Shown here in pieces: positions 1,383 through 58,724 of a DNA stretch of 64,000 nucleotides. The DNA is from Escherichia coli (GTDB lineage: Bacteria; Pseudomonadota; Gammaproteobacteria; Enterobacterales; Enterobacteriaceae). The stretch lies in NCBI RefSeq assembly GCF_001677475.2, contig NZ_CP015229.1; one strand, 5' to 3'. The notes beneath the pieces are model-generated. The model did no database searches. It saw nothing but the letters and a program-made list of their open reading frames with translations, and was not told where the DNA came from. A program made the translations under genes and the position numbers. Within the stretch, counting starts at the first letter, position 1, and each line of letters opens with the position of its first letter.

Positions 1383-3944
1383 ATGAGTGCAATAGAAAAT
1401 TTCGACGCCCATACGCCCATGATGCAGCAGTATCTCAAGCTGAAAGCCCAGCATCCCGAGATCCTGCTGTTTTACCGGATGGGTGATTTTTATGAACTGT
1501 TTTATGACGACGCAAAACGTGCGTCGCAACTGCTGGATATTTCACTGACCAAACGCGGTGCTTCAGCGGGAGAGCCGATCCCGATGGCGGGGATTCCCTA
1601 CCATGCAGTGGAAAACTACCTCGCCAAACTGGTGAATCAGGGCGAGTCCGTTGCCATCTGCGAACAAATTGGCGATCCGGCGACCAGCAAAGGTCCGGTT
1701 GAGCGCAAAGTTGTGCGTATCGTTACGCCTGGCACCATCAGCGATGAAGCCCTGTTGCAGGAGCGTCAGGACAACCTGTTGGCGGCTATCTGGCAGGACA
1801 GTAAAGGTTTCGGCTACGCGACGCTGGATATTAGTTCCGGTCGTTTTCGCCTGAGCGAACCGGCTGACCGGGAAACGATGGCGGCAGAACTGCAACGCAC
1901 TAATCCTGCGGAACTGCTGTATGCAGAAGATTTTGCTGAAATGTCGTTAATTGAAGGTCGTCGCGGTCTGCGCCGTCGCCCGCTGTGGGAGTTTGAAATC
2001 GACACCGCGCGCCAGCAGTTAAACCTGCAATTTGGCACTCGTGATCTGGTCGGTTTTGGCGTCGAGAACGCGCCGCGCGGACTTTGTGCTGCCGGTTGTC
2101 TGTTGCAGTATGCGAAAGATACCCAACGCACGACCCTGCCGCATATTCGTTCTATCACCATGGAACGTGAGCAGGACAGCATCATTATGGATGCCGCGAC
2201 GCGTCGTAACCTGGAAATTACCCAGAACCTGGCGGGCGGTGCGGAAAACACGCTGGCTTCAGTGCTCGACTGCACTGTAACGCCGATGGGTAGTCGTATG
2301 CTGAAACGCTGGCTGCATATGCCAGTGCGCGATACCCGCGTGTTGCTTGAGCGCCAGCAAACTATTGGCGCATTGCAGGATTTCACCGCCGAGCTGCAGC
2401 CGGTACTGCGTCAGGTCGGCGACCTGGAACGTATTCTGGCACGTCTGGCTTTACGAACAGCTCGCCCACGCGATCTGGCCCGTATGCGTCACGCTTTCCA
2501 GCAACTGCCGGAGTTGCGTGCGCAGTTAGAAACTGTCGATAGCGCTCCGGTGCAGGCGCTACGTGAGAAGATGGGCGAGTTTGCCGAGCTGCGCGATCTG
2601 CTGGAGCGAGCAATCATCGACACACCGCCAGTGCTGGTACGCGACGGTGGTGTTATCGCATCAGGCTATAACGAAGAGCTGGATGAGTGGCGCGCGCTGG
2701 CTGACGGCGCGACCGATTATCTGGAGCGTCTGGAAGTCCGCGAGCGTGAACGTACCGGCCTGGACACGCTGAAAGTTGGCTTTAATGCGGTGCACGGCTA
2801 CTACATTCAGATCAGCCGTGGGCAAAGCCACCTGGCACCGATTAACTACATGCGCCGCCAGACGCTGAAAAACGCCGAACGCTACATTATTCCAGAGCTA
2901 AAAGAGTACGAAGATAAAGTTCTCACCTCAAAAGGCAAAGCACTGGCACTGGAAAAACAGCTTTATGAAGAGCTGTTCGACTTGCTGTTGCCGCATCTGG
3001 AAGCGTTGCAACAGAGCGCGAGCGCGCTGGCGGAACTCGACGTGCTGGTTAACCTGGCGGAACGGGCCTATACCCTGAACTACACCTGCCCGACCTTTAT
3101 TGATAAACCGGGTATTCGCATCACCGAAGGCCGCCATCCGGTGGTTGAACAGGTACTGAACGAGCCATTTATCGCCAACCCGCTGAACCTGTCGCCGCAG
3201 CGTCGCATGTTGATCATTACCGGTCCGAATATGGGCGGTAAAAGTACCTATATGCGCCAGACCGCACTGATTGCGCTGATGGCGTATATCGGCAGCTATG
3301 TACCGGCACAAAAAGTCGAGATTGGACCTATCGATCGCATCTTTACCCGCGTAGGGGCAGCGGATGATCTGGCATCCGGGCGTTCAACCTTTATGGTGGA
3401 GATGACCGAAACCGCTAATATTCTGCATAACGCCACCGAGTACAGCCTGGTGTTGATGGATGAGATTGGGCGCGGGACGTCCACTTACGATGGCCTGTCG
3501 CTGGCGTGGGCGTGCGCGGAAAATCTGGCGAATAAGATTAAAGCGTTGACGCTGTTTGCCACCCACTATTTCGAGCTGACCCAGTTACCGGAGAAAATGG
3601 AAGGCGTCGCCAACGTGCATCTCGATGCACTGGAGCACGGCGACACCATTGCCTTTATGCACAGCGTGCAGGATGGCGCGGCGAGCAAAAGCTACGGCCT
3701 GGCGGTTGCAGCTCTGGCAGGCGTGCCAAAAGAGGTTATTAAGCGCGCACGGCAAAAACTGCGTGAGCTGGAAAGCATTTCGCCGAACGCCGCCGCTACG
3801 CAAGTGGATGGTACGCAAATGTCTTTGCTGTCCGTACCAGAAGAAACTTCGCCTGCGGTCGAGGCACTGGAAAACCTCGACCCGGATTCACTGACTCCGC
3901 GTCAGGCGCTGGAATGGATTTATCGCTTGAAGAGTCTGGTGTAA
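1383..3944 (+). CDS. mutS: DNA mismatch repair protein MutS
   Basis: 853-aa ORF; Walker [10 protein letters not shown], MutS signature [14 protein letters not shown], start [18 protein letters not shown]. Confidence 0.97.
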
Positions 3945-3978: not shown

Positions 3979-4049
3979 ATTAACGACAACTGACGAATCA
4001 AATAAAAATACCCTGTATAATAGGAAATCTTATTTTACAGGGTAAAACC

Positions 4050-4706
4050 ATGCCATCTACACGCTATCAAAAAATTAATGCCCATCACTATCGTTATATA
4101 TGGGCCGTTGGTGATATTCATGGTGACTATCAATTATTACAATCCCGCTTACATCAACTCTCTTTTTGCCCTGAAACCGACTTACTTATTTCTGTCGGCG
4201 ATAATATTGATCGTGGGCCGGAGAGTCTTAACGTACTACGCCTGTTAAACCAGCCCTGGTTTACATCGGTTAAAGGCAACCATGAAGCGATGGCGCTTGA
4301 TGCATTCGAAACTGGCGATGGAAATATGTGGCTTGCCAGCGGCGGCGACTGGTTCTTTGAATTAAATGAGACGGAACAACAAGAAGCAATAAATCTGTTG
4401 CTGAAATTTCATCGCCTTCCACATATTATTGAAATCACTAACGACATAATAAAATATGTCATCGCACATGCAGATTATCCGGGGAATGAATATCTCTTTG
4501 GCAAAGAAATAGCGGAGAGCGAATTACTCTGGCCTGTTGATCGTGTGCAGAAATCACTTAATGGCGAGTTACAACAAATAAACGGCGCTGATTATTTTAT
4601 ATTTGGACATATGATGTTTGATAACATTCAGACGTTCGCTAACCAGATTTATATTGATACCGGATCGCCGAAAAGCGGGCGGCTGTCATTTTATAAAATA
4701 AAGTAG
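4050..4706 (+). CDS. pphB: Serine/threonine protein phosphatase 2 (PrpB)
   Basis: 218 aa; calcineurin-like metallophosphatase motifs GDIHG, GDNIDRG, GNHE. Confidence 0.9.
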   Translation: MPSTRYQKINAHHYRYIWAVGDIHGDYQLLQSRLHQLSFCPETDLLISVGDNIDRGPESLNVLRLLNQPWFTSVKGNHEAMALDAFETGDGNMWLASGGDWFFELNETEQQEAINLLLKFHRLPHIIEITNDIIKYVIAHADYPGNEYLFGKEIAESELLWPVDRVQKSLNGELQQINGADYFIFGHMMFDNIQTFANQIYIDTGSPKSGRLSFYKIK

Positions 4707-4707
4707 T

Positions 4708-4733
4708 CTCATGCTTCTTCTGTGAAGCATGAG
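4708..4733. terminator. Hairpin between convergent pphB and ygbI
   Basis: 9-bp inverted repeat CTCATGCTT / AAGCATGAG with an 8-nt loop; AT-rich flank on the minus-strand side. Confidence 0.35.
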
Positions 4734-4756
4734 TAACCCGGTGTTATTGCAGGCCA

Positions 4757-5524
4757 TTATTCATTTTTCGCTACCAGCAAAGAGAGATCCTGCTTCGCCA
4801 GCGCGCGACTGGCACTCTCCGGCAAACCGTCGTCTGTAATGATCTGATCAAACTCGCTTAATGGTAACGCCAGCCATGTCGCCACCTGACCATATTTCGT
4901 CGCATCACAGACCAAAACTCGCTGGCGGCTGGCACTGGCAATCGCCCGTTTCACCGTGACTTTATCTTCCGCTGGCGTAGAAATCCCCCGCACACTCCAT
5001 GACGATGCAGAAATAAAAGCCTGATCAATCATCAGGCTGCGCAGCATAGTCGCAGCGGCTTCCCCGACACAGGAACGGTTTTCCCGACACACTGCACCGC
5101 CAGTGTGAATAATTGTGCAATTACTATTGTCGAGCAAGTAGTCTGCAATAACGAAATCGTTTGTGACCACAGTCAGTGACTCCATGTGAATCAGATGCTG
5201 TGCTATCGCTAACGTGGTCGTTCCCGCATCCAGATAGATACAACTTCCCGGCTGAACAAGACTTGCCGCCAGCTTGCCAATAGCCGCTTTTTGCGTCATT
5301 GCCAGCGCAGTTTTTACCTGATGAGAAGGTTCATGCGCCACGCGTCCCGGAGACTGGACGCCTCCGGACACCAGCACAACGGCTCCCTGCTGCTCCAGTT
5401 TTTGTAAATCCCGACGAATGGTCATATGTGACACATTCATTCTGTCCGTTAGTTCAGCAATACTGACAATGCCTTTTTCAGCTACCATCTCAAGGATGAT
5501 TTGGCGACGCTCTACGGGTATCAA
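4757..5524 (-). CDS. ygbI: DeoR-family transcriptional regulator
   Basis: N-terminal DeoR HTH (IAELTDRMNVSHMTIRRDL) plus sugar-binding domain. Start set at TTG 5524, preceded by AAGGAAGGAG at 6-nt spacing, giving 255 aa; the ORF-track ATG at 5554 has no SD. Confidence 0.85.
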   Translation of the reverse strand: MIPVERRQIILEMVAEKGIVSIAELTDRMNVSHMTIRRDLQKLEQQGAVVLVSGGVQSPGRVAHEPSHQVKTALAMTQKAAIGKLAASLVQPGSCIYLDAGTTTLAIAQHLIHMESLTVVTNDFVIADYLLDNSNCTIIHTGGAVCRENRSCVGEAAATMLRSLMIDQAFISASSWSVRGISTPAEDKVTVKRAIASASRQRVLVCDATKYGQVATWLALPLSEFDQIITDDGLPESASRALAKQDLSLLVAKNE

Positions 5525-5719
5525 CTTTTGCTCCTTCCTTTGTCCTGCTGACATTCTACGCTATTTGCCTGCGAAACGTGCGCGGCGCAACTAATGCTTA
5601 GTTCACATAAAATAACACACAATGTTAATTTTTGTGAATCAGCTCACCATATCGTTATCTTCCAGCGCTTATATTCACAATATCAAACAAAATATCACTT
5701 AAATTAACAAGGAGAGAAG

Positions 5720-6628
5720 ATGAAAACGGGATCTGAGTTTCATGTCGGTATCGTTGGCTTAGGGTCAATGGGAATGGGAGCAGCACTGTCATGTGTCCGC
5801 GCAGGTCTTTCTACCTGGGGCGCAGACCTGAACAGCAATGCCTGCGCTACGTTGAAAGAGGCAGGTGCTTGCGGGGTTTCTGATAACGCCGCGACGTTTG
5901 CCGAAAAACTGGACGCTCTGCTGGTGCTGGTGGTCAATGCGACCCAGGTTAAACAGGTGCTGTTTGGTGAAACAGGCGTTGCACAACATCTGAAACCCGG
6001 TACGGCAGTAATGGTTTCTTCCACTATCGCTAGTGCTGATGCGCAAGAAATTGCTACCGCTCTGGCTGGATTCGATCTGGAAATGCTGGATGCGCCAGTT
6101 TCTGGTGGTGCAGTAAAAGCCGCTAACGGTGAAATGACTGTCATGGCCTCCGGTAGCGATATTGCCTTTGAACGACTGGCACCCGTGCTGGAAGCCGTTG
6201 CCGGAAAAGTTTATCGCATCGGTGCAGAACCGGGACTAGGTTCGACCGTAAAAATTATTCACCAGTTGTTAGCGGGCGTACATATTGCTGCCGGAGCCGA
6301 AGCGATGGCACTTGCAGCCCGTGCGGGGATCCCGCTGGATGTGATGTATGACGTCGTGACCAATGCCGCCGGAAATTCCTGGATGTTCGAAAACCGGATG
6401 CGTCATGTGGTGGATGGCGATTACACCCCGCATTCAGCCGTCGATATTTTTGTTAAGGATCTTGGTCTGGTTGCCGATACAGCCAAAGCCCTGCACTTCC
6501 CGCTGCCATTGGCCTCAACAGCATTGAATATGTTCACCAGCGCCAGTAACGCGGGTTACGGGAAAGAAGACGATAGCGCAGTTATCAAGATTTTCTCTGG
6601 CATCACTCTACCGGGAGCGAAATCATGA
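5720..6628 (+). CDS. ygbJ: NAD-dependent 3-hydroxyisobutyrate-dehydrogenase-family enzyme (L-threonate dehydrogenase LtnD-like)
   Basis: 302 aa; N-terminal Rossmann GxGxxG (VGIVGLGSMGMG); first gene of the ygbJKLM cluster. Confidence 0.85.
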   Translation: MKTGSEFHVGIVGLGSMGMGAALSCVRAGLSTWGADLNSNACATLKEAGACGVSDNAATFAEKLDALLVLVVNATQVKQVLFGETGVAQHLKPGTAVMVSSTIASADAQEIATALAGFDLEMLDAPVSGGAVKAANGEMTVMASGSDIAFERLAPVLEAVAGKVYRIGAEPGLGSTVKIIHQLLAGVHIAAGAEAMALAARAGIPLDVMYDVVTNAAGNSWMFENRMRHVVDGDYTPHSAVDIFVKDLGLVADTAKALHFPLPLASTALNMFTSASNAGYGKEDDSAVIKIFSGITLPGAKS

Positions 6629-7887
6629 TCAAGATTGGCGTTATCGCCGATGATTTTACCGGCGCGACGGATATCGCCAGTTTTCTGGTGGAAAACGGTC
6701 TACCAACGGTACAAATTAACGGTGTTCCCACAGGTAAAATGCCGGAAGCAATCGACGCACTAGTGATCAGCCTGAAAACGCGCTCCTGTCCGGTGGTTGA
6801 AGCCACACAGCAATCGCTGGCGGCTCTGAGCTGGTTGCAACAGCAAGGTTGCAAACAGATCTATTTCAAATACTGCTCTACTTTCGACAGTACGGCGAAA
6901 GGTAATATCGGCCCGGTTACCGATGCGTTAATGGATGCTCTCGACACGCCGTTTACGGTCTTCTCTCCGGCCCTGCCGGTCAACGGACGTACGGTTTATC
7001 AGGGGTATTTGTTCGTAATGAATCAACTGCTGGCCGAATCTGGGATGCGCCATCACCCGGTAAATCCCATGACCGACAGCTATCTTCCCCGTCTGGTTGA
7101 AGCGCAATCCACAGGGCGCTGCGGCGTCGTTTCGGCACATGTTTTCGAACAAGGTGTAGATGCCGTTCGTCAGGAGCTGGCTCGCTTACAGCAAGAGGGC
7201 TATCGCTACGTGGTACTTGATGCGCTGACCGAACACCATCTGGAAATTCAGGGAGAAGCCTTGCGCGATGCTCCACTGGTAACGGGCGGTTCTGGTCTGG
7301 CGATTGGCCTGGCCCGGCAGTGGGCGCAAGAAAACGGTAACCAGGCTCGCGAAGCAGGGCGTCCGCTCGCTGGGCGCGGCGTAGTGCTCTCCGGTTCATG
7401 CTCTCAAATGACCAACCGCCAGGTGGCACATTACCGTCAAATTGCACCAGCCCGTGAAGTTGATGTGGCACGCTGCCTCTCAACCGAAACTCTGGCCGCT
7501 TATGCACACGAACTGGCAGAGTGGGTTCTGGGCCAGGAAAGTGTACTTGCTCCACTGGTTTTTGCCACCTCCAGCACTGACGCATTGGCAGCAATTCAAC
7601 AGCAATACGGTGCACAAAAAGCCAGTCAGGCAGTAGAAACGCTGTTTTCTCAACTAGCGGCGCGGTTAGCAGCGGAAGGCGTGACACGCTTTATTGTCGC
7701 AGGCGGTGAGACCTCCGGCGTAGTCACACAGAGCCTGGGCATAAAAGGGTTTCATATTGGCCCAACCATTTCCCCCGGCGTGCCGTGGGTAAACGCACTG
7801 GATAAGCCTGTCTCACTCGCCCTTAAATCTGGCAACTTCGGTGATGAAGCCTTTTTTTCACGAGCCCAAAGAGAGTTTTTATCATGA
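6625..7887 (+). CDS. ygbK: Four-carbon acid-sugar kinase, DUF1537 family (3-oxo-tetronate kinase OtnK-like)
   Basis: 420 aa; N-terminus MIKIGVIADDFTGATD typical of DUF1537 kinases; ATGA overlap with ygbJ stop. Confidence 0.85.
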   Translation: MIKIGVIADDFTGATDIASFLVENGLPTVQINGVPTGKMPEAIDALVISLKTRSCPVVEATQQSLAALSWLQQQGCKQIYFKYCSTFDSTAKGNIGPVTDALMDALDTPFTVFSPALPVNGRTVYQGYLFVMNQLLAESGMRHHPVNPMTDSYLPRLVEAQSTGRCGVVSAHVFEQGVDAVRQELARLQQEGYRYVVLDALTEHHLEIQGEALRDAPLVTGGSGLAIGLARQWAQENGNQAREAGRPLAGRGVVLSGSCSQMTNRQVAHYRQIAPAREVDVARCLSTETLAAYAHELAEWVLGQESVLAPLVFATSSTDALAAIQQQYGAQKASQAVETLFSQLAARLAAEGVTRFIVAGGETSGVVTQSLGIKGFHIGPTISPGVPWVNALDKPVSLALKSGNFGDEAFFSRAQREFLS

Positions 7888-8522
7888 GCGATTTCGCAAA
7901 AGTAGAGCAGTCTTTGCGAGAGGAGATGACGCGGATTGCCAGTTCATTCTTTCAGCGCGGCTATGCAACCGGTTCGGCTGGCAATCTGTCGCTGCTTTTA
8001 CCTGACGGGAATTTACTGGCGACACCGACAGGTTCATGCCTGGGTAATCTCGATCCGCAGCGGCTTTCCAAAGTCGCCGCGGATGGCGAATGGTTAAGTG
8101 GTGACAACCCCTCGAAAGAGGTGCTCTTTCATCTGGCGCTGTATCGCAACAATCCGCGCTGTAAAGCGGTGGTGCATTTGCACAGCACATGGTCGACGGC
8201 GCTTTCCTGCCTGCAAGGGCTGGACAGCAGCAACGTTATTCGTCCGTTCACACCATATGTGGTGATGCGGATGGGAAATGTCCCGCTGGTGCCCTATTAC
8301 CGACCGGGCGATAAACGCATCGCACAGGATCTGGCGGAACTGGCAGCAGACAATCAGGCTTTTTTACTGGCAAATCATGGCCCAGTGGTTTGCGGTGAAA
8401 GCCTGCAAGAAGCCGCCAACAATATGGAAGAGCTGGAGGAAACGGCAAAGCTGATTTTTATTCTCGGTGACCGCCCGATCCGTTATCTGACCGCAGGTGA
8501 AATTGCGGAATTAAGGAGTTAA
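7884..8522 (+). CDS. ygbL: Class II aldolase/adducin-family decarboxylase (OtnC-like)
   Basis: 212 aa; class II aldolase-like fold; ATGA overlap with ygbK stop. Confidence 0.85.
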
Positions 8523-8526
8523 TGCA

Positions 8527-9303
8527 ATGCCTCGTTTTGCAGCTAATTTATCCATGATGTTCACCGAAGTGCCTTTTATTGAACGCTTCGCCGCAGCGCG
8601 AAAAGCCGGGTTCGATGCTGTGGAATTTCTGTTTCCCTATGACTACTCCCCCCTGCAAATCCAAAAGCAACTGGTGCAAAACCATCTGACACTGGCGCTG
8701 TTCAATACCGCTCCCGGAGATATTAATGCGGGGGAATGGGGATTATCCGCCCTTCCCGGACGTGAGCAGGAAGCACGCGCAGACATCGACCTGGCACTGG
8801 AATATGCATTGGCGCTCAATTGTGAACAAGTCCATGTGATGGCAGGCGTCGTGCCCGCTGGCGAAGATGCTGAACGGTACCGGGCGGTATTTATCGATAA
8901 TCTCCGCTACGCTGCCGACCGCTTTGCGCCACACGGCAAGCGAATATTGGTTGAAGCACTCAGCCCCGGCGTTAAGCCTCATTATCTCTTCTCCAGCCAG
9001 TATCAGGCACTGGCTATTGTTGAAGAGGTTGCGCGAGATAACGTGTTTATTCAACTAGATACTTTCCATGCGCAAAAAGTAGATGGCAACCTGACGCATT
9101 TAATCCGCGACTACGCCGGGAAATATGCGCACGTACAAATTGCCGGACTACCTGATCGTCATGAACCGGACGATGGAGAAATCAACTATCCGTGGCTGTT
9201 CCGCCTGTTCGATGAAGTGGAATATCAGGGCTGGATCGGTTGTGAATACAAACCTCGTGGCCTCACCGAAGAAGGGCTTGGCTGGTTTGACGCCTGGCGC
9301 TAA
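8527..9303 (+). CDS. ygbM: Hydroxypyruvate-isomerase-family (TIM-barrel) isomerase (OtnI-like)
   Basis: 258 aa; xylose-isomerase-like TIM barrel; follows ygbL by 4 nt. Confidence 0.85.
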
Positions 9304-9391
9304 TTCGCTAAATCCCTAATTACAACGTACCCATACATCCCCCCATCTACGGATGGGGTAGGTTAACTATAACTTTCAGACAGGGTTTCCC

Positions 9392-10756
9392 ATGTCCACA
9401 ATTACATTGTTATGCATTGCGTTAGCTGGCGTAATCATGCTGTTGCTGCTGGTCATCAAGGCAAAGGTTCAACCATTCGTTGCTCTGCTCCTCGTCAGCC
9501 TGTTAGTCGCACTTGCGGCGGGTATACCGGCGGGCGAAGTGGGTAAAGTGATGGTCGCCGGGATGGGCGGTGTGCTTGGTTCCGTCACTATTATTATTGG
9601 TCTGGGCGCTATGCTGGGGCGTATGATCGAACACTCTGGTGGTGCAGAGTCACTGGCTAATTATTTCAGTCGCAAGTTAGGTGACAAACGAACTATCGCT
9701 GCGCTGACTCTGGCAGCGTTCTTCCTCGGTATTCCCGTCTTCTTTGATGTCGGCTTTATTATTCTTGCGCCAATCATTTACGGTTTTGCCAAGGTTGCCA
9801 AAATATCGCCACTCAAATTTGGCCTGCCTGTCGCTGGGATCATGCTCACTGTTCACGTGGCGGTACCGCCGCATCCAGGCCCTGTCGCCGCAGCGGGGTT
9901 ACTCCACGCAGACATCGGCTGGCTAACCATCATCGGTATTGCGATTTCTATTCCCGTAGGGATTGTTGGCTACTTTGCAGCGAAAATAATCAATAAGCGC
10001 CAATATGCGATGTCAGTAGAAGTACTGGAACAGATGCAACTGGCTCCGGCCAGTGAGGAAGGCGCGACAAAATTAAGCGATAAAATAAATCCACCGGGCG
10101 TCGCGCTGGTCACCTCGCTAATTGTTATTCCTATCGCGATTATCATGGCGGGTACGGTTTCTGCAACACTGATGCCGCCTTCGCATCCCCTGCTTGGTAC
10201 GCTACAGCTGATCGGCTCACCAATGGTAGCTCTAATGATTGCGCTGGTGCTGGCATTCTGGTTATTGGCTTTACGTCGCGGCTGGAGCTTACAACACACC
10301 AGCGACATTATGGGCTCAGCGCTTCCTACTGCGGCGGTAGTGATTTTGGTTACTGGTGCTGGAGGGGTATTTGGCAAAGTGCTGGTGGAATCGGGCGTCG
10401 GCAAAGCCCTTGCCAACATGTTACAAATGATTGACCTGCCTCTGTTACCAGCCGCATTTATTATTTCACTGGCGCTGCGTGCATCGCAGGGGTCAGCAAC
10501 CGTAGCAATACTGACAACCGGCGGGTTACTCTCAGAAGCGGTGATGAGATTGAATCCGATTCAGTGCGTATTGGTGACGCTGGCAGCCTGCTTTGGTGGG
10601 CTTGGTGCGTCACATATTAATGACTCAGGGTTCTGGATTGTGACCAAATATCTGGGATTGTCGGTAGCAGACGGTCTGAAAACCTGGACAGTGTTAACGA
10701 CCATTCTTGGTTTTACCGGATTCTTAATCACCTGGTGCGTATGGGCGGTGATTTAA
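9392..10756 (+). CDS. ygbN: GntP-family acid-sugar permease
   Basis: 454 aa, polytopic membrane protein; completes the ygbIJKLMN cluster. Confidence 0.85.
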   Translation: MSTITLLCIALAGVIMLLLLVIKAKVQPFVALLLVSLLVALAAGIPAGEVGKVMVAGMGGVLGSVTIIIGLGAMLGRMIEHSGGAESLANYFSRKLGDKRTIAALTLAAFFLGIPVFFDVGFIILAPIIYGFAKVAKISPLKFGLPVAGIMLTVHVAVPPHPGPVAAAGLLHADIGWLTIIGIAISIPVGIVGYFAAKIINKRQYAMSVEVLEQMQLAPASEEGATKLSDKINPPGVALVTSLIVIPIAIIMAGTVSATLMPPSHPLLGTLQLIGSPMVALMIALVLAFWLLALRRGWSLQHTSDIMGSALPTAAVVILVTGAGGVFGKVLVESGVGKALANMLQMIDLPLLPAAFIISLALRASQGSATVAILTTGGLLSEAVMRLNPIQCVLVTLAACFGGLGASHINDSGFWIVTKYLGLSVADGLKTWTVLTTILGFTGFLITWCVWAVI

Positions 10757-10763
10757 CCTTAAT

Positions 10764-10794
10764 AAAAAGGTCCGATGAGCATCGGACCTTTTAT
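10764..10794. terminator. Bidirectional rho-independent terminator between ygbN and the decarboxylase operon
   Basis: AAAGGTCCGAT-GAGC-ATCGGACCTTT hairpin flanked by an A-run upstream and TTTTATTT downstream; sits between convergent stops at 10756 and 10795. Confidence 0.75.
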
Positions 10795-11031
10795 TTAGCG
10801 CTTATCTGCCGCCAGCAGCGGCGGGATGCTCGGCACCATTGGCGCGTCATCAATATCTTTTTGTGTCATACGGAACGCTTGTGGGTAATGTTCACGGCTG
10901 GTGCGGCGTAGCGGTTCGGTATCGCGCCAGGTATAAAGGCAATGCTGGCACTGATATACCGTCCAGACATCTTTCACCGGCGATTTCGCCATCACTTCAA
11001 TCTGTTCATCGGCACAACGTGGACAAATCAT
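10795..11031 (-). CDS. Small subunit of UbiD-family (de)carboxylase (EcdD/KpdD/BsdD-like)
   Basis: 78 aa with Cys motifs (MICPRC...CQHC), directly downstream of the UbiD-like gene; arrangement typical of phenolic-acid decarboxylase BCD operons. Confidence 0.7.
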   Translation of the reverse strand: MICPRCADEQIEVMAKSPVKDVWTVYQCQHCLYTWRDTEPLRRTSREHYPQAFRMTQKDIDDAPMVPSIPPLLAADKR

Positions 11032-11041
11032 CTTCTTCTCC

Positions 11042-12469
11042 TTATTGACGCGCGGCCAGCATAGCGGTCAGTTTTTCAGCCCAGGCTTTGGTTTCCGGCA
11101 AATCCACCACCGGCTGGCTGTAGTGACCACGGTTGTCCGGGGCGACAGGCGTGGTGGCGTCGATAATCAGCTTGTCGGTGATGCCTGCCGGGCTTGAGCC
11201 AGGGTCGAGTTCCAGCACGGACATATTTGGTAGTTGCACCAAGTCGCCCGCCGGGTTCACTTTCGAGGAGAGCGCCCACATCACCTGCGGCAGGTTGAAC
11301 GGGTCAACGTCTTCATCGACCATAATCACCATCTTCACGTAGCCCAGACCGTGCGGCGTGGTCATCGCACGCAGGCCCACCGCGCGGGCAAAGCCGCCGT
11401 AGCGTTTTTTGGTGGAGATAATCGCCAGCAGGCCGTGGGTGTACATGGCGTTTACCGCCTGCACTTCCGGGAACTCGGCTTTCAGTTGTTGATACAGCGG
11501 TACGCAGGTGGCTGGCCCCATCAGGTAGTCGATTTCGGTCCACGGCATGCCGAGGTACAGCGATTCGAAAATCGGCCTGGTGCGGTAAGAGACTTTATCG
11601 ATGCGCACCACGGTCATGTTACGCCCGCCGGAGTAGTGTCCGGTAAACTCACCGAACGGCCCTTCGATTTCGCGTTTACGGCTTTCGATGACCCCTTCGA
11701 GGATCACTTCTGAACCCCACGGCACATCAAAACCGGTCAGCGGGGCGGTAGCGATCGGGTATGGGCTTTCACGCAGCGCGCCTGCCATTTCATACTCAGA
11801 CTGATCGTATTTCAGTGGCGTAGCCCCCATCAGCGTGATGATCGGATCGTTACCGAGCGTGATCGCAATCGGTAGATCTTCACCGCGCTCTTCTGCTTTA
11901 TGTAGATGCAGGGCGATATCGTGCATCGGCACCGGTTGTAGGCCGAGCTTTCGCTTGCCCTTCACTTCCATGCGGTAGATGCCGACGTTCTGCTTGCCGA
12001 AGTTATCCGGGTCGAGCGGATCGCGGGAAACCACGCAGGCTTTGTCGAGATAGAAACCGCCATCGCCATCGTTTAAACGAAACAGCGGCAGGATATCGAA
12101 CAGGTTAATCTCGTCGCTATCAACGGTGTTCTGCGCCCAGGCAGGATTGGCGCGGCGCTCCGGGGCAATCGGGAAGTTATCCCAGCGGCGAATAAACTCA
12201 TCAATCTGTTTTTTAACCGGAGTGTTTGCCGGCAGGCCGAGGGAAATCGCATGGTTCTGCCAGGAACCGATGGTATTCATCGCCACGCGGGCATCGGTAA
12301 AGCCGCGAATATTGTCAAACCACAGCGCCGGTGCGCCGTCGCCGATACGCCCGGTGGCGTTAGCTGCTGCTGCCAGATCCGGCTCAGCGTTCACCTCTTC
12401 GCTGATTTTCAGTAACTGGCCGTGGTCATCAAGCGCCTGTAAAAAGCTGCGTAAATCATCAAATGCCAT
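11042..12469 (-). CDS. UbiD-family prenylated-FMN-dependent aromatic-acid decarboxylase (EcdC/YclC-like)
   Basis: 475 aa; UbiD-like N-terminus MAFDDLRSFLQALDDHGQLLKISEEVNAEPDLAAAA. Confidence 0.85.
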   Translation of the reverse strand: MAFDDLRSFLQALDDHGQLLKISEEVNAEPDLAAAANATGRIGDGAPALWFDNIRGFTDARVAMNTIGSWQNHAISLGLPANTPVKKQIDEFIRRWDNFPIAPERRANPAWAQNTVDSDEINLFDILPLFRLNDGDGGFYLDKACVVSRDPLDPDNFGKQNVGIYRMEVKGKRKLGLQPVPMHDIALHLHKAEERGEDLPIAITLGNDPIITLMGATPLKYDQSEYEMAGALRESPYPIATAPLTGFDVPWGSEVILEGVIESRKREIEGPFGEFTGHYSGGRNMTVVRIDKVSYRTRPIFESLYLGMPWTEIDYLMGPATCVPLYQQLKAEFPEVQAVNAMYTHGLLAIISTKKRYGGFARAVGLRAMTTPHGLGYVKMVIMVDEDVDPFNLPQVMWALSSKVNPAGDLVQLPNMSVLELDPGSSPAGITDKLIIDATTPVAPDNRGHYSQPVVDLPETKAWAEKLTAMLAARQ

Positions 12470-13062
12470 TATTTATTCTCCTGAGAAAAATTCCGGGCCT
12501 GCGGCAATCCTTGCCAGCGCCTGGCGTGGGGATGTTCGAGGCCAAATTGATCCAGCACGCGGGCTACCACATGGTGGACAATGTCATCTACCGTTTCGGG
12601 ATGGTTATAAAAGGCAGGCATCGGCGGCACCATCGCCACGCCCATGCGTGAAAGTGCGAGCATATTTTCGAGATGGATGGTGCTAAGCGGCATTTCACGC
12701 GGCACCAGCACCAGTTTGCGGCCTTCTTTGAGCACGACGTCCGCCGCGCGCCCTACCAGGCCATCGGCGTAACCAGCGCGGATACCGGAGAGCGTTTTCA
12801 TACTGCACGGAATAACGATCATGCCGTCGGTACGAAAAGAACCGGATGAGATGATCGCCGCCTGATCCGCCGGGTTATGGCTGAAGTCTGCGAGGGCAGC
12901 AACATCGCGAGCGCTGTAAGGCGTTTCCAGTTCAATGGTGGTTTTCGCCCACTTCGACATCACCAGATGAGTCTCGACATTCGGCATCTCCCGCAGCGCT
13001 TGCAGTAATGCCACACCAAGAGGCGCACCGGTAGCCCCTGTCATCCCGACGATCAGTTTCAT
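12469..13062 (-). CDS. UbiX/Pad1-family flavin prenyltransferase (EcdB-like)
   Basis: 197 aa; N-terminal MKLIVGMTGATGAPLGVALLQAL is the UbiX/PAD1 flavoprotein signature; stop overlaps the UbiD-like start by 1 nt. Confidence 0.85.
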   Translation of the reverse strand: MKLIVGMTGATGAPLGVALLQALREMPNVETHLVMSKWAKTTIELETPYSARDVAALADFSHNPADQAAIISSGSFRTDGMIVIPCSMKTLSGIRAGYADGLVGRAADVVLKEGRKLVLVPREMPLSTIHLENMLALSRMGVAMVPPMPAFYNHPETVDDIVHHVVARVLDQFGLEHPHARRWQGLPQARNFSQENK

Positions 13063-13208
13063 TGCTTATTCTCTTAATTGTTCGTATACGAACGTTATTA
13101 TTAACATACTCCTTCATTTCCACAGCGGCAAGGATTGAAAAGTAACAACATCTTCTTCGTCACTAAAAAACCGCTATGATAGCGACAGAGAATTAGCCCG
13201 GAGTTTAC

Positions 13209-13616
13209 ATGGCGTTACGAAATAAAGCGTTCCATCAGTTACGACAGCTTTTTCAGCAGCACACGGCTCGCTGGCAGCACGAGTTACCTGACCTGACCAA
13301 ACCACAGTATGCGGTGATGCGCGCCATTGCTGATAAGCCTGGTATCGAACAGGTGGCACTGATAGAAGCAGCAGTCAGCACCAAAGCAACGTTGGCAGAA
13401 ATGTTGGCAAGAATGGAGAATCGTGGCTTAGTCAGACGTGAACATGATGCCGCTGACAAGCGGCGTCGCTTTGTCTGGCTGACTGCCGAAGGAGAAAAGG
13501 TACTTGCTGCGGCGATACCGATTGGTGACAGTGTGGATGAGGAATTTTTGGGGCGTTTGAGTGCAGAAGAGAAGGAGCTGTTTATGCAGCTGGTGCGCAA
13601 GATGATGAGCACATAG
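13209..13616 (+). CDS. MarR-family transcriptional regulator, divergent from the decarboxylase operon
   Basis: 135 aa; winged-helix MarR architecture (…QYAVMRAIADKPGIEQVALIEAAVSTKATLAEMLARMENRGLVRR…). Confidence 0.8.
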   Translation: MALRNKAFHQLRQLFQQHTARWQHELPDLTKPQYAVMRAIADKPGIEQVALIEAAVSTKATLAEMLARMENRGLVRREHDAADKRRRFVWLTAEGEKVLAAAIPIGDSVDEEFLGRLSAEEKELFMQLVRKMMST

Positions 13617-25612: not shown

Positions 25613-26822
<1,210 letters not shown>

Positions 26823-26826
<4 letters not shown>

Positions 26827-27473
26827 GCCTCTGCTCCGGGTTTGATCAGCATCAGACCACAACCGAACGCCCGGCTTTTGCCATACCCCTGACTGAGACG
26901 TTGCAGAAATAACCCAGGATCGGTGACCGTAAGCATCCCCGTATAATCCACGCTACTGAACTGGATCAGTTGCCGGGAGTTTTCCCGCCGCAGTTGCTGT
27001 TGTCGGTAGGCATCAACCGAAGTATCCAGCAGTGTAAAACCGCTTCTCTCCCCCTGCGCTGCCAGCCAGTTCAGCGCAGCCTGTTGTTGATGCAACCAGA
27101 CATCACTTCCTTCCACCGGCCCCCTCACCTGCCGTTTCGCCTCCATCAGCAAGTCGTGGCGTTTGCCCGCTTTACAAATTGTTGGATTCGCCCGCAGGTT
27201 GAAACAAAGGGATTGTCCGGTACGCAACTCTGGCGCAAATGGTCGGCATTCGATGGTGAAAATATCACTTTCCGCCGGGCGTTCCTGCGACAGGACAAAA
27301 AAGCGAAACGCCCCCTGGAGTTCTTCCCGACGATAAAGAAATTGCCTTTCTTTGCCGCCAGGAAAAAGATCCCACAGCCACTGATGCATTACATATTCAC
27401 CGCGATCCACCAAATGCAGCAACTGCGCAGGCGAAAGCTGGCCGGTATGTAATGTTATTCTTGAGAGGTACAT
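26823..27473 (-). CDS. cas6e: crRNA endoribonuclease Cas6e (CasE)
   Basis: Start at ATG 27473 (MYLSRITLH…) preceded by AAGGAGGA; 216 aa; Gly-rich C-terminal segment (GYGKSRAFGCGLM). Strongly diverged from K-12 CasE as recalled. Confidence 0.9.
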
Positions 27474-28201
27474 GGTTCCTCCTTGCTGAGCCACGGCCCC
27501 TGATTGATGGTGCGTTCCCCAAACAGCCACTGCTGACGATTTAAAGGAACATCCCGGCGACGTAATATTTTGCTCGCGACCAGGCCGTCGTGTTCCCCTT
27601 CCCACCAGCATTCATCCTGAAGTTTCGGGAGTGAGACTTTCAGTTCGCGGAAACTATCCTGATACTGTTGGTATGCGTTACGTAAGACATCAGACGCGTT
27701 GCCTTCGAGCAGTAACGGCGCAAGTGGTAACGCCAGCGGATGACTTTTTCGCCCCAGATAAAGCGGAAAAACCGGATGACGTAAACCGTCCTGCAACTGT
27801 TCAAGGCTGTAAGGCGCATCGGGGGTTGTTGCCACCGCCACCATCCACCAGGCATCGGTGTAGTAGTCGCGCCGGGAGATAATCGCGCTCAGAAGATCAG
27901 GGGCGCTCAACTCTTCGCGACGGCTGAAATAACGCGCTTTACGCACCTCTTTTGGCATCTGGACCGTGTGATAATCCCGTGCCCAGCGCGGGTTACGGCT
28001 GGCGCAAACCACCAGTGAATAGTGGCGGTTAAACGCGTTTAATCGTTCGGTATCATCACGCCGAATCCCTACCCCGGCAGCCAGCAGCCCCAGCAATGCT
28101 GAGCGCGAAGGCAGTTCATGGGTATGACGCACTTCGCCGGGGGCATCGACGCCCCAGGATGCCATTGGCCCATGAAGCTGAAAAATCAAATATTGGCTCA
28201 T
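27455..28201 (-). CDS. cas5: Cascade subunit Cas5e (CasD)
   Basis: 248 aa; N-terminus MSQYLIFQLHGPMASWG parallels K-12 CasD (MRSYLILRLAGPMQAWG); 19-nt overlap with cas6e start. Confidence 0.9.
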   Translation of the reverse strand: MSQYLIFQLHGPMASWGVDAPGEVRHTHELPSRSALLGLLAAGVGIRRDDTERLNAFNRHYSLVVCASRNPRWARDYHTVQMPKEVRKARYFSRREELSAPDLLSAIISRRDYYTDAWWMVAVATTPDAPYSLEQLQDGLRHPVFPLYLGRKSHPLALPLAPLLLEGNASDVLRNAYQQYQDSFRELKVSLPKLQDECWWEGEHDGLVASKILRRRDVPLNRQQWLFGERTINQGPWLSKEEPCTSQE

Positions 28202-28211
28202 TAGCCGCCCC

Positions 28212-29267
28212 TTACGCGCAGATAAAGTCCAGCACGTCCTTCATGCTTCCCTGTTTGTTCATCACGTCAAAGCTTGCGCATTCGGTCTTCTGTTCATAGA
28301 CCGTATTCATATTTTCGCGAAGCGTTGTAATACGCTGCACCGCCACATCTAACTGCCGGGTGCCATTAATGGGTTCATAGAAAGCCGCCGCCAGAGAGCG
28401 TGGTTGTTCAGTGCCTTTTTCTGCCAGCGCCCAGGAGGCGTAGGCACGGCTGGCAAAGCTGTTCTGTTTGCCGGTTGGGGAGACTTTAAGTGCGGCTTCC
28501 GTAAAGGCGCGCAAGGTCTGATTAGCTAACGCTTCGTCACCGCCGAGGTTTTCGACCAGCAGATCTTTATCGATGCAGATATAGGTGTAGAACAGCGCAG
28601 AACCGAATCCGGTTTCACCAAGATGCCCGGCACCGGCATCTTCAGAAGCCTGGCGCAAATCATCAACGGCGGTGAAAAAATCATCTTCGACAATCGTTTC
28701 ACTGACACCAAATGCATGCGCGACCTGGCAGGCGGCTTCAACATTAAATTCGGGTTTATTCGCCAGCATACGACCAAACATAGCGATATCTACTGCCATG
28801 CGATCTTTACGTAACAAAGCGAGATCTTCCTCTTTTGGCGCGCGCTTTTCTTCGGCCAGTTGATGGGCCAGCGCTTTTACGGCGTCAAATTCTGCCGGGC
28901 TGATATGGACTAGCTGTTCAGTTTCGGCGTTAGTGAGCGGATCTTTTGGTTTTTTGTCGTTTTTAGCTTTCCCAAGATAATCCGCAATTTTCGCCGCCCA
29001 TTCGATGGCTTTTTTCTCTTCGATGCCTTTCTCAATCAGGATAGTTGCCGCCTCACGCGCAATACGCCCACTGCGAATACCAATATGGCCCGCCAGCGCC
29101 TGTTCAAAAAGTGCAGAAGTGCGCCACGCACGTTTCAGACTTTGTGAGGAAACGCGCAGACGCGTTGCTCCACCCAGTACCACAGTTTTTGGCGCACCGG
29201 TGTCATCACGGTTAAGGTTGGCAGCAGGGTAAGCGGTTAACAAATGAAGCTGAATAAATGTCGTCAT
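28212..29267 (-). CDS. cas7: Cascade backbone subunit Cas7e (CasC)
   Basis: 351 aa; N-terminal …LNRDDTGAPKTVVLGGATRLRVSSQSLKRAWR… typical of Cas7e. Confidence 0.9.
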   Translation of the reverse strand: MTTFIQLHLLTAYPAANLNRDDTGAPKTVVLGGATRLRVSSQSLKRAWRTSALFEQALAGHIGIRSGRIAREAATILIEKGIEEKKAIEWAAKIADYLGKAKNDKKPKDPLTNAETEQLVHISPAEFDAVKALAHQLAEEKRAPKEEDLALLRKDRMAVDIAMFGRMLANKPEFNVEAACQVAHAFGVSETIVEDDFFTAVDDLRQASEDAGAGHLGETGFGSALFYTYICIDKDLLVENLGGDEALANQTLRAFTEAALKVSPTGKQNSFASRAYASWALAEKGTEQPRSLAAAFYEPINGTRQLDVAVQRITTLRENMNTVYEQKTECASFDVMNKQGSMKDVLDFICA

Positions 29268-29281
29268 GAGATAGTCCTTTA

Positions 29282-29818
29282 TTAATTTTGTTCGTTATCG
29301 GCGTCGCCAGCCTGGTAATATTCCAGCGCCCAGCGGATACGGATAAATTCTGTTGGCCGCTGCTGGCGGCGGTGATGATTGAGCAGATCGTCGCTCTCCT
29401 GGCACCAGCGGAAAATATCGTCTGCCAAAGAGATAAGATTGACGGAACCATTTAATAATTTGACCGCGCGACGTAACTGGCGCAGTAATTCATCCGGCGT
29501 TTTGACTGCCGACAGGCGAGTAAAACGCCCCTCAGACATTACCGCCGCCAACTGCGCGGCAAAAGGCTGCCGTTCATCAATGGCTTTTACATTGGCGGCA
29601 ACGGCGGCAACCAGCGCCAGTGCGGTAAAACGCCACTCCTGTGATTCAATTTTCCACAACGTGTGGGTCTGCATCAGCAGTGAACGAAACCCTTCTGACA
29701 GACAAACATCATTAACCGTTGTGCTACGCCGCAGACTGGCACGATTGCCGCGTTTTTCCTGCAACTCTTCGTGCCATTTACGCAGCGTGGCTTTGTGCTC
29801 CTCTTTTACAATACTCAT
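29282..29818 (-). CDS. cse2: Cascade small subunit Cse2 (CasB)
   Basis: 178 aa, basic helical protein between cse1 and cas7; ATGA overlap with cse1 stop. Confidence 0.85.
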   Translation of the reverse strand: MSIVKEEHKATLRKWHEELQEKRGNRASLRRSTTVNDVCLSEGFRSLLMQTHTLWKIESQEWRFTALALVAAVAANVKAIDERQPFAAQLAAVMSEGRFTRLSAVKTPDELLRQLRRAVKLLNGSVNLISLADDIFRWCQESDDLLNHHRRQQRPTEFIRIRWALEYYQAGDADNEQN

Positions 29819-31377: not shown

Positions 31378-31752
31378 ACGCTTTCCTCGCAAATAAGACC
31401 ATCCATGGTAGGTTGTCCATCACCATATTCAAGAATCAATCGAAAAGAGAGATTACATCATATTAAATGAATATATTGAAAATTAGATTATTATTAAATA
31501 ATCAATAAATCACACGAATATATAAAGATAATTTTCTATAATGCTTTTCGCTCAGGCTCTATCACTTAATAAAAACCAAAGTATTCTTTATCAAAAGGTT
31601 TTTCAACTCTGCTTCCGGACATTGTTACATATATCAATAACTCTTAGAGATTTTCTTTATTTCGAATAACCCTTATTTTTGATATAAACGTCTTCAGTTC
31701 CCTGTCTAAGGGATTAACCAAGTTAGTGATACACGTATATCATTTTATGCTC
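31378..31752 (-). promoter_or_regulatory. AT-rich cas3-cse1 intergenic region, presumed Cascade operon promoter
   Basis: 375-nt strongly AT-rich spacer upstream of cse1. By analogy with K-12, where this region holds the H-NS-silenced, LeuO-activated Pcas promoter; not demonstrated here. Confidence 0.45.
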
Positions 31753-31781
31753 CTGTTCCCCGCGTCAGCGGGGATAAGCCC
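31753..31781 (+). repeat. Solo CRISPR-repeat-like sequence, inverted relative to both arrays, just downstream of cas3
   Basis: Plus strand CTGTTCCCCGCGTCAGCGGGGATAAGCCC; its reverse complement matches the array repeat at 25 of 29 positions; begins 26 nt from the cas3 stop. Confidence 0.6.
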
Positions 31782-31806
31782 TGGCGTCATCCGACTCCAG
31801 GGCATC

Positions 31807-53985: not shown

Positions 53986-54004
53986 AAATCAGATAAAGTC
54001 AGTC

Positions 54005-55318
<1,314 letters not shown>

Positions 55319-55348
55319 TCACTAGTTAAACTGAAACTCCAGACAAAC

Positions 55349-55371
55349 AACGCGTACCCAGGGTACGCGTT
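55349..55371 (-). terminator. Palindromic stem-loop between pyrG and eno (possible partial terminator or processing site)
   Basis: AACGCGTACCC-a-GGGTACGCGTT palindrome; a U-rich stretch follows on the minus strand. Confidence 0.4.
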
Positions 55372-55390
55372 GCCGTTCTAACTTTTTTAC

Positions 55391-57043
<1,653 letters not shown>

Positions 57044-57255
57044 TTAGGTTGAAAAGACGATGGAATAACCAGGACGGGAAAGCAGTATACCCGAACATGA
57101 CCTGTGCCACAAACTTTCATTATCCCTCCTCTTCGCCAGCGCACTATTGAAATCAGGAGTGAGAAAATAGCCCCTTTGGGGTAAATGTTTTTGACGCAAA
57201 TCAAGCGCTTGTCATTTAAAAAATGACACAAATCGCGCTTGACCACGTAATTCCC

Positions 57256-58047: not shown

Positions 58048-58117
58048 TGAATTGTCCTGAAAATTGCGGGTCTGTCAGGTGGAAACCTGTGACCAGAATA
58101 GAAGTGAGTAAGTAACA

Positions 58118-58701: not shown

Positions 58702-58724
58702 AACCCTTTCCTCAAACCGCTATC

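Follow-up and report, generated by a model that had tools for sequence, protein, structure and literature searches.

The pathway for the catabolism of the four-carbon acid sugars L-threonate, a degradation product of vitamin C, and D-erythronate was reportedly characterised by Zhang et al. in 2016 (PNAS 113:E4161) in Cupriavidus necator, Pectobacterium atrosepticum, Salmonella Typhimurium and Haemophilus influenzae. According to two later papers that summarise this work (PMC12540250, PMC12994016), orthologues in other species carry out the enzymatic steps from L-threonate to dihydroxyacetone phosphate, and deletion mutants, including one in otnK of P. atrosepticum, lose growth on L-threonate. 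Homologues of LtnD and OtnK can show promiscuity, L-idonate being one example, and crosstalk with gluconate use is documented in one Pectobacterium strain (PMC12994016). The published growth phenotypes of the corresponding locus in Escherichia coli concern tartrate only, not threonate (PMC8464067, PMC6452873). Pathway and locus are both already known, the former published in 2016 and the latter annotated in E. coli by RefSeq; added here are the contrast between a frameshifted K-12 allele and an intact one, and a candidate operator and promoter model for the regulator YgbI. We propose that the locus is a repressor-controlled operon for four-step L-threonate catabolism, and assign this reading, with the regulatory model included, a probability of about 80%.

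Gene content and family membership

The DNA analysed (the window) is a stretch of 64 000 nucleotides of E. coli (RefSeq assembly GCF_001677475.2, contig NZ_CP015229.1). According to the list of open reading frames, six genes span positions 4757-10756 (Table 1), with mutS (1383-3944) and pphB (4050-4706) as upstream neighbours; the coordinates are exactly those of an earlier note on this DNA. That note had described a DeoR-type gene facing genes for a dehydrogenase, a kinase, an aldolase-like protein, an isomerase and a permease, an arrangement with which both coordinates and Pfam architectures agree. The ATGA coupling it had claimed corresponds to start/stop overlaps at 6625-6628 (ltnD/otnK) and 7884-7887 (otnK/otnC), seen in the coordinates and in the alignments; otnC and otnI are separated by 4 nt, with an AAGGAG within the 3' end of otnC. 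All six reading frames are full length, without stops or frameshifts, and the gene arrangement is far beyond what chance would give. The hairpin in the otnI-ygbN spacer has no T-tract, is identical in K-12 and strain elppa4 and was not called by the terminator scan. The terminator-like hairpin between ygbN and the convergent gene for decarboxylase subunit D is also kept in both strains; the scan missed it, a possible reason being that A-T pairs prolong the stem into the T-run.

Table 1. Features of the ygbI-ygbN locus, in window coordinates.
Feature	Position	Strand	Description and basis
ygbI	4757-5524	-	DeoR-family repressor, 255 aa, TTG start at 5524
SD of ygbI, AAGGAAGGAG	5531-5540	-	6-nt spacer to the TTG; read from sequence
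Candidate YgbI operator half-site A, TCACATAAAATAACA	5603-5617	+	Repeat search; enriched motif
Candidate YgbI operator site B, TCACAAAAATTAACA	5623-5637	-	About -97 from the ltnD ATG
CRP-like site, TGTGAATCAGCTCACC	5633-5648	+	TGTGA-N6-TCACC; overlaps operator site B; putative function
-10-like TATATT, predicted ltnD promoter	5670-5675	+	Conserved block TATATT/TACATT/TATACT across genera
Candidate YgbI operator site C, TCACTTAAATTAACA	5695-5709	+	-25 from the ltnD ATG
ltnD (ygbJ)	5720-6628	+	L-threonate 2-dehydrogenase, 302 aa; SD AAGGAG 5709-5714
otnK (ygbK)	6625-7887	+	3-oxo-tetronate kinase (former DUF1537), intact, 420 aa
C5 run in otnK	7772-7776	+	C4 in K-12; alignment of window, K-12 and strain elppa4
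otnC (ygbL)	7884-8522	+	Class II aldolase-fold decarboxylase
otnI (ygbM)	8527-9303	+	2-oxo-tetronate isomerase, TIM barrel, 258 aa
Hairpin CCCCATC-TACG-GATGGGG	9341-9358	+	In the 88-nt otnI-ygbN spacer; read from sequence
ygbN	9392-10756	+	GntP-family permease, presumed L-threonate importer, 454 aa
Bidirectional terminator-like hairpin, GGTCCGAT-GAGC-ATCGGACC	10769-10796		A-run upstream, TTTTATTT downstream; read from sequence

A TTG start with a strong SD had been claimed for ygbI and is borne out by the SD itself (AAGGAAGGAG), by RefSeq, which uses the TTG (5524-5522, minus strand) for a gene of 768 bp, and by an alignment across genera, where 15 loci of other species have TTG, GTG or ATG as the corresponding codon. 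A longer frame of 265 aa, from an ATG at 5554, was rejected: it has no SD, its ATG is not conserved outside Escherichia, and the family model begins at the TTG.

All six products exceeded curated equivalog cut-offs of NCBIfam. YgbI, with an N-terminal HTH_DeoR domain (PF08220) and a C-terminal DeoRC sensor domain (PF00455), scored 482.5 with NF040890 (cut-off 400), the match beginning at residue 11 of the long frame. LtnD (NAD_binding_2 together with NAD_binding_11) scored 473.3 with NF043037 (cut-off 350), the next model, 2-hydroxy-3-oxopropionate reductase, giving 198 against 397; identity to PDB 3g0o was 82.2%. OtnK, in which both SBD_N and NBD_C are present, scored 598.6 with NF043035 (cut-off 350) but 135 against 450 bits with the D-threonate kinase model and 113 against 700 with that of oxo-isoapionate kinase. 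It aligned end to end with the kinases of Salmonella (3dqq, 79.7% identity), H. influenzae (HI1011, 1yzy, 55.4%) and C. necator (5dmh, 46.9%), and its 420 residues retain the positions, PGVP and LALKSGNFG among them, that do not vary between the four aligned sequences. OtnC (Aldolase_II) scored 333 with NF043034 (cut-off 250), all fuculose-phosphate aldolase models falling under their cut-offs; it is nearly identical to PDB 6vop and shares 74.1% identity with 6voq. OtnI (AP_endonuc_2) scored 394.7 with NF043033 (cut-off 325) and 578.5 bits against PDB 1k77, an entry named 'Hypothetical protein ygbM'. YgbN scored 825.3 with NF007332 (cut-off 524) and matched GntP_permease (PF02447) over residues 5-453 with 516 bits.

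RefSeq names the homologous E. coli genes ygbI, ltnD, otnK, ygbL/otnC, ygbM and ygbN, and these names, together with the four equivalog models of the four-step tetronate pathway, agree with the L-threonate-type assignment proposed earlier; the comparison with characterised enzymes suggested at the time gave the good identities listed above for OtnK and LtnD. The earlier assignment had also included D-erythronate. Its dehydrogenase, DenD, is not among the six genes in 4757-10756, all of which are otherwise assigned, while LtnD is present; only the L-threonate entry is therefore encoded at the locus, and that half of the claim is supported.

The natural substrate might instead be another sugar acid, such as L-idonate, a gluconate-derived acid, or D-erythronate by way of a dehydrogenase encoded elsewhere. 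In Agrobacterium, a homologue of LtnD accepts L-idonate as well, and OtnI and OtnK then act on what it forms; otnK is needed for gluconate use in one Pectobacterium strain (PMC12994016); YgbN, moreover, belongs to the gluconate permease family. We regard this as highly improbable, since the E. coli proteins fit the L-threonate/tetronate models rather than those of D-threonate or oxo-isoapionate kinases, the cluster has no second dehydrogenase, and an otnK mutant of P. atrosepticum SCRI1043 lost growth on L-threonate but kept growth on gluconate (PMC12994016).

Distribution and comparison with strain K-12

The operon is carried by 4577 of 5426 complete E. coli genomes and is missing from 824 (about 15%). 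The locus lies in the mutS-rpoS region, whose polymorphism is documented (PMC4209514), and with these absences the word 'retained' in the earlier note is apt; in the source genome this variable metabolic island is present in its full-length form. The six-gene order, ygbI on the minus strand and ltnD-otnK-otnC-otnI-ygbN on the plus strand, was also found in E. albertii, Pectobacterium, Serratia, Dickeya, Erwinia, Pantoea and Pluralibacter, and the enzyme core in Aeromonas, Vibrio, Marinomonas, Succinivibrionaceae and Pasteurellaceae. Among the matches listed, ten Enterobacterales loci have the full order, including an Enterobacteriaceae metagenome-assembled genome (L016), and in each of them ygbN is the final gene of the operon. 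At least 80 loci were covered, and the matches listed did not include Salmonella, H. influenzae, C. necator or P. atrosepticum.

In K-12 the genes ygbI-ygbJKLMN (b2735-b2740) have the same order, orientation and spacing as in the window, with nucleotide identities of 98.3-99.6% per gene (ltnD 99.56%), five differences in the 195 nt of the intergenic region, one amino-acid difference in YgbI and 13 nucleotide differences in otnI, seven of them nonsynonymous. No complete E. coli genome came closer than 98.4-99.2% identity, and an origin in another species was therefore considered; E. albertii, however, was clearly more distant (OtnK 92%), and the DNA is attributed to a lineage of E. coli or Shigella without a representative among the complete genomes. 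K-12 ygbK differs by a 1-bp deletion that shortens a C5 run to C4; the resulting frameshift gives a product of 388 aa without the invariant C-terminal motifs, whereas the window encodes the intact 420 aa. K-12 has a 91-nt gap between ygbK and ygbL, where the window has the otnK/otnC ATGA overlap. In K-12 rpoS follows ygbN directly, whereas in the window genes for a hydroxyarylic acid decarboxylase and a MarR gene lie between them.

The sequence could have been kept in the source lineage while function was lost through lineage-specific substitutions, leaving a cryptic or decaying operon. Three substitutions of the window are absent from orthologues at conserved positions, namely G232E in OtnI (G in 50 of 57 orthologues), K75N in OtnC (K or R in 49 of 59) and G386R in YgbN (G in 13 of 19); the proportion of nonsynonymous changes in otnI and the dispensability of the locus, absent from many genomes and frameshifted in K-12, point the same way. 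Most private substitutions, however, lie at variable positions, the six frames are full length with scores far over the equivalog cut-offs, and start codons, SDs and couplings are preserved, as are the regulatory motifs. The OtnI allele of the window has exact copies on at least 25 public contigs, with full-length neighbours at the three places shown. Decay is, on this evidence, very unlikely.

Another reading, put forward on the basis of studies in K-12, takes L- or meso-tartrate catabolism as the physiological role of the locus in E. coli, with YgbI as repressor of a tartrate pathway. A K-12 ygbI deletion grows on 20 mM L-tartrate and the wild type does not (PMC8464067), and both independent lines evolved on m-tartrate carried ygbI mutations and overexpressed ygbJKLMN (PMC6452873); LtnD is related, besides, to tartronate-semialdehyde and hydroxyacid reductases. 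We consider this role unlikely. Cells grow on tartrate only once the repressor is lost, which means that tartrate is not an inducer of the operon, and with otnK frameshifted in K-12 a complete and intact pathway cannot be what the phenotype requires; the activity was termed 'likely promiscuous' by the authors of PMC6452873. All four enzymes score as tetronate-enzyme equivalogs, and the operon is conserved with Pectobacterium, a genus in which loss of otnK abolishes growth on L-threonate.

The L-threonate reading allows a further and more tentative suggestion, which we think possible though somewhat less probable than its opposite. The L-threonate operon would be functional in wild E. coli, the source genome included, with induction by way of a phosphorylated intermediate that OtnK produces, and K-12 would have lost this ability by the C5-to-C4 frameshift in ygbK. 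This lesion could explain the cryptic look of the locus, its division into 'ygbJK' and 'ygbLM' units in databases, and its expression only after ygbI mutations, as in the tartrate phenotypes. If so, descriptions of the locus based on K-12 mischaracterise the wild-type state of the species. K-12 is the reference strain for all functional work on the locus, and its frameshifted kinase is a caveat for the published tartrate and regulon data.

The ygbI-ltnD intergenic region

In K-12, YgbI binds a single ygbI-ygbJ intergenic ChIP-exo site and represses ygbJKLMN, as judged by ChIP-exo and RNA-seq (PMC8464067). The 195-bp intergenic region of the window contains three candidate operator sites. A 15-nt motif defined on the E. 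coli sequence, TCAC-N6-TAACA, was present in 25 of 27 intergenic regions from outside Escherichia, with 37 sites in all against 0.29 expected from shuffles; in most Enterobacterales loci the sites lay near -98 and -25. Sites A and B form an imperfect palindrome (5602-5638, 16-nt arms; repeat search). Site A, seen in Escherichia only among the orthologous regions, overlaps a promoter-like site of ygbI (-35 TTCACA 5638-5633, -10 TATTTT 5614-5609). The position (-97 to -105) and orientation of site B are kept in Pectobacterium, Serratia, Dickeya, a Klebsiella sp., Erwinia and Pluralibacter, and most of these genera have site C between -25 and -27, with -32 in Dickeya and -19 in Pantoea. The spacing from B to C was 72 bp in the window and 73 bp wherever both sites occurred.

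The CRP-like site was recognised by the established CRP consensus, and most Enterobacterales loci keep TGTGA-N6-TCAC when their upstream regions are aligned. The predicted start of the ltnD transcript near 5682 would place it at about -41.5. A simple promoter scan gave no more hits than shuffled sequence and missed the ltnD promoter, whose -10 went uncalled because there is no good -35; the scan was dropped as evidence, and the cross-genus footprint was used for this promoter instead. Operators, CRP site and inducer are computational predictions.

Proposed pathway and comparison with known systems

Orthology and conserved synteny support the pathway reading. YgbN would import L-threonate, which LtnD is predicted to oxidise with NAD+ to 2-oxo-tetronate; OtnI would convert this to 3-oxo-tetronate, OtnK would phosphorylate the latter at the expense of ATP, and decarboxylation of the product by OtnC would yield dihydroxyacetone phosphate (DHAP) for glycolysis. 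The two ATGA overlaps and the 4-nt gap would couple the first four genes translationally. From the intergenic region, YgbI probably represses both the operon and its own gene, by binding sites that would bracket a CRP-dependent ltnD promoter, and may be released by a phosphorylated pathway intermediate, as other DeoR-type repressors are. Gene content, family membership, intactness, synteny and motif conservation were observed; from them we infer the substrate, the specificity of the transporter, the operator, CRP dependence and the inducer.

The DeoR-family sugar-phosphate repressors GlpR, AgaR, SrlR, UlaR and FucR share with YgbI the HTH_DeoR and DeoRC domains and the divergent position relative to a catabolic operon; YgbI matched their equivalog models weakly, under the cut-offs, and passed only its own. 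Two other routes, the three-step bypass (LtnD, 2-OtnK, 2-OtnC; Guo et al., 2024) and the Ltn3D route (PMC12994016), have the same substrate, the DHAP end product and a DUF1537-type kinase in common with the proposed pathway. Both omit OtnI, and the decarboxylase of the bypass is of the F_bP_aldolase type (PMC12540250). The window encodes OtnI and a class II aldolase-type OtnC, and its system is therefore of the four-step type. The four-step LtnD/DenD-OtnI-OtnK-OtnC pathway includes the DenD entry for D-erythronate, which the cluster in the window lacks, but consists of the same four enzyme families, clustered with a transporter and a regulator, and the full six-gene order of the window equals that of a Pectobacterium genome.

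Gene content and family assignment of the ygbI-ygbN cluster

An earlier note, made from the sequence alone, had read positions 4757-10756 as a cluster for L-threonate/D-erythronate catabolism in which a regulator faces five genes, with ATGA coupling among them. The six-gene layout agrees exactly with the ORF list and the proposed domain families agree with the Pfam architectures, and the gene cluster is confirmed not to be a chance pattern. The coupling is seen as ATGA overlaps at the ltnD/otnK and otnK/otnC junctions; otnC and otnI are separated by a 4-nt gap, with AAGGAG within the end of otnC, and ygbN is preceded by an 88-nt spacer. Curated equivalog cut-offs of NCBIfam served as the family criterion and were passed by all products of the locus.

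Features of the locus and its upstream flank, with Pfam architectures and NCBIfam model scores; ORFs are from the ORF list
Feature	Position	Strand	Architecture or description	NCBIfam model	Score	Cut-off
mutS	1383-3944		upstream of locus
pphB	4050-4706		upstream of locus
ygbI (255/265 aa)	4757-5524/5554	-	HTH_DeoR + DeoRC	YgbI repressor	482.5	400
Imperfect palindrome	5602-5638		ygbI-ltnD intergenic region
CRP-like block	5633-5648		TGTGA-N6-TCACC; 9/10 specified positions agree with CRP consensus
-10-like block	5670-5675		TATATT/TACATT; conserved across genera
Third copy of 15-mer	5695-5709		copy of the palindrome's 15-mer
ltnD (ygbJ)	5720-6628	+	NAD_binding_2 + NAD_binding_11	L-threonate dehydrogenase	473.3	350
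otnK (ygbK)	6625-7887	+	SBD_N + NBD_C (former DUF1537)	3-oxo-tetronate kinase	598.6	350
otnC (ygbL)	7884-8522	+	Aldolase_II
otnI (ygbM)	8527-9303	+	xylose-isomerase-like TIM barrel (AP_endonuc_2)	2-oxo-tetronate isomerase	394.7	325
Hairpin	9341-9358		otnI-ygbN spacer
ygbN	9392-10756	+	GntP_permease	GntP transporter PRK09821	825.3	524

Identity to characterised enzymes, the check that had been suggested, proved good: OtnK, aligned end to end, was 79.7% identical to the Salmonella chain 3dqq, 55.4% to H. influenzae HI1011 (1yzy) and 46.9% to the C. necator chain 5dmh, and LtnD was 82.2% identical to 3g0o. OtnC was near-identical to 6vop (74.1% identity to 6voq), and OtnI matched PDB 1k77, which is E. 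coli YgbM. RefSeq names OtnI 'HPr family phosphocarrier protein' via model NF007441 (579.5 bits); since the protein is a TIM-barrel isomerase that passes the 2-oxo-tetronate isomerase model, this name looks like a propagated misnomer.

A four-step route, assigned by Zhang et al. 2016 and summarised in PMC12540250 and PMC12994016, leads from L-threonate to 2-oxo-tetronate (LtnD), 3-oxo-tetronate (OtnI), 3-oxo-tetronate 4-phosphate (OtnK) and finally DHAP and CO2 (OtnC). These two papers also report loss of growth on L-threonate in deletion mutants, P. atrosepticum otnK among them. For the E. coli enzymes these activities are assigned by orthology. A synteny scan with one genome per species (at least 80 loci) recovered the order ygbI(-)/ltnD-otnK-otnC-otnI-ygbN(+) also in E. 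albertii, Pectobacterium, Serratia, Dickeya, Erwinia, Pantoea and Pluralibacter, and the enzyme core in Aeromonas, Vibrio, Marinomonas, Succinivibrionaceae, Pasteurellaceae and many Burkholderiales. The gene-cluster finding is real and its interpretation correct, and the locus is already known. Equivalog scores, identity and synteny support the L-threonate branch; no D-erythronate dehydrogenase is encoded within the cluster, so that only L-threonate entry is provided for at this locus.

A second, paralogous DUF1537 cluster was encountered in E. coli SCPM-O-B-8794 (locus L054, 8001-11456) and Enterobacter sp. Bisph1 (locus L055), comprising otnK-, otnC-, deoR- and otnI-like genes of 42-51% identity, and ltnD was absent from its flanks. 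Its presence in an E. coli genome suggests that some strains may have another acid-sugar pathway.

Translation start of ygbI and the ygbI-ltnD regulatory region

The predicted TTG start of ygbI with a strong Shine-Dalgarno (SD) sequence was supported. The TTG at 5524 (-) has AAGGAAGGAG upstream with a 6-nt spacer, and inspection of the sequence before the in-frame upstream ATG at 5554 revealed no SD. YgbI has 255 aa in the RefSeq annotation and the alignment to the NCBIfam YgbI model begins at the TTG-start residue. At the aligned position all 15 other-species loci (E. albertii included) have a start codon preceded by purine-rich sequence: TTG in Escherichia, GTG in Pectobacterium, Serratia, Dickeya and Yersinia, and ATG in Erwinia, Pantoea and Pluralibacter. 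Conservation across these 15 loci does not extend to the upstream ATG.

The 195 bp between ygbI and ltnD include an imperfect palindrome together with a third copy of the palindrome's 15-mer. The candidate operator motif TCACWTAAAWTAACA, defined on E. coli and then tested in other genera, matched at 37 sites (at least 13/15 positions) outside Escherichia, where 25 of the 27 ygbI-ltnD intergenic regions had at least one; composition-preserving shuffles gave a mean of 0.29 matches. In most Enterobacterales loci a minus-oriented site lies ~98 nt and a plus-oriented site ~25 nt 5' of the ltnD start codon, 73 bp apart. Between them, cross-genus comparison identified two further conserved blocks, CRP-like and -10-like, whose geometry fits a putative class II CRP-dependent promoter with a start near 5682. 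One candidate repressor site overlaps the CRP-like site and the other lies within the leader, a placement that agrees with the single YgbI ChIP-exo peak overlapping the ygbJ promoter (PMC8464067). We infer this regulatory model from sequence conservation. DeoR-type repressors have phosphorylated intermediates as inducers, and by analogy such an intermediate is the likely inducer of YgbI.

In the otnI-ygbN spacer, a G+C-rich hairpin of 7 bp with a UACG tetraloop and no downstream T-tract has the same sequence in K-12 and in the comparison strain elppa4. A possible role for it lies in mRNA stability or processing, by which permease expression would be separated from that of the enzymes.

The ygbK frameshift of K-12 and allele-specific substitutions

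The K-12 MG1655 annotation gives ygbK a length of 388 aa and leaves 91 nt between it and ygbL, the result of a 1-bp deletion from C5 to C4 (window 7772-7776; ~7483-7486 in the MG1655 locus L002). The window, with otnK intact, and elppa4 carry the C5 form. K-12 OtnK has lost the end of the NBD_C domain, including PGVP and LALKSGNFG, which do not vary between the window protein and those of Salmonella, Haemophilus and Cupriavidus. The exact C4 allele was found in 371 of 4580 genomes and the exact C5 allele in 3377; nearly all of the 40 C4 genomes listed are identifiable as K-12 or laboratory-derived strains, and BLR(DE3), which carries K-12 DNA around recA, is also among them. Published functional work on the E. 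coli locus has used K-12, with its frameshifted ygbK, throughout. The RegulonDB division into 'ygbJK' and 'ygbLM' operons, contradicted by RNA-seq (PMC4168707), is probably a by-product of the frameshift.

Phenotypes published for E. coli involve tartrate: K-12 with a ygbI deletion grows on L-tartrate (PMC8464067), and evolution on meso-tartrate yields ygbI mutations, an effect that the authors ascribe to promiscuity (PMC6452873). If OtnK makes the inducer, the frameshifted operon would be uninducible and only ygbI mutations would turn it on; we hypothesise that this is the reason for the dependence on ygbI mutations.

Substitutions specific to the window fall mostly at variable positions. Three affect conserved positions and introduce residues found in no orthologue: OtnI G232E (G in 50/57), OtnC K75N (K or R in 49/59) and YgbN G386R (G in 13/19). 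At least 25 draft contigs in public collections carry the exact OtnI allele, so the G232E-bearing allele is not a sequencing error.

Genomic setting and distribution

By megablast, almost every complete E. coli genome contains the region, its genes being annotated as ygbI, ltnD, otnK, ygbL/otnC, ygbM and ygbN. Per-gene nucleotide identities between the window and K-12 MG1655 are 98.3-99.6%. The closest of 5426 complete genomes was 98.4-99.0% identical at 4000-11500 and 99.2% at 54000-62000 (relA-eno-pyrG); with no closer genome, the window belongs to an E. coli or Shigella lineage that is missing from the complete genomes.

Matches to the region also included a few plasmids, and in the literature ygbI/ygbJ-named fragments recur beside blaSHV-12 on IncX3 blaNDM plasmids. 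Elsewhere in the window, a minus-strand ORF run at ~25900-34500 encodes products of 899, 525, 178, 351, 248 and 262 aa and others. We take this run to lie where E. coli has type I-E CRISPR-Cas genes, and the plasmid fragments presumably derive from a Klebsiella chromosomal homologue mobilised with blaSHV.

The operon was present at no less than 80% coverage in 4577 of the 5426 complete genomes and absent from 824, so that 'retained' next to pphB, as the earlier note put it, is a fair word. The locus belongs to the mutS-rpoS region, which is documented as mosaic and has four main configurations (PMC4209514). Downstream of ygbN, 10795-13616 carries genes for hydroxyarylic-acid decarboxylase subunits D, C and B (-) and a MarR/SlyA-type gene, followed by rpoS. 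K-12 lacks this decarboxylase and MarR/SlyA block. Under the o454-nlpD typing scheme, the arrangement in the window corresponds to 'pattern IV' (PMC4209514).
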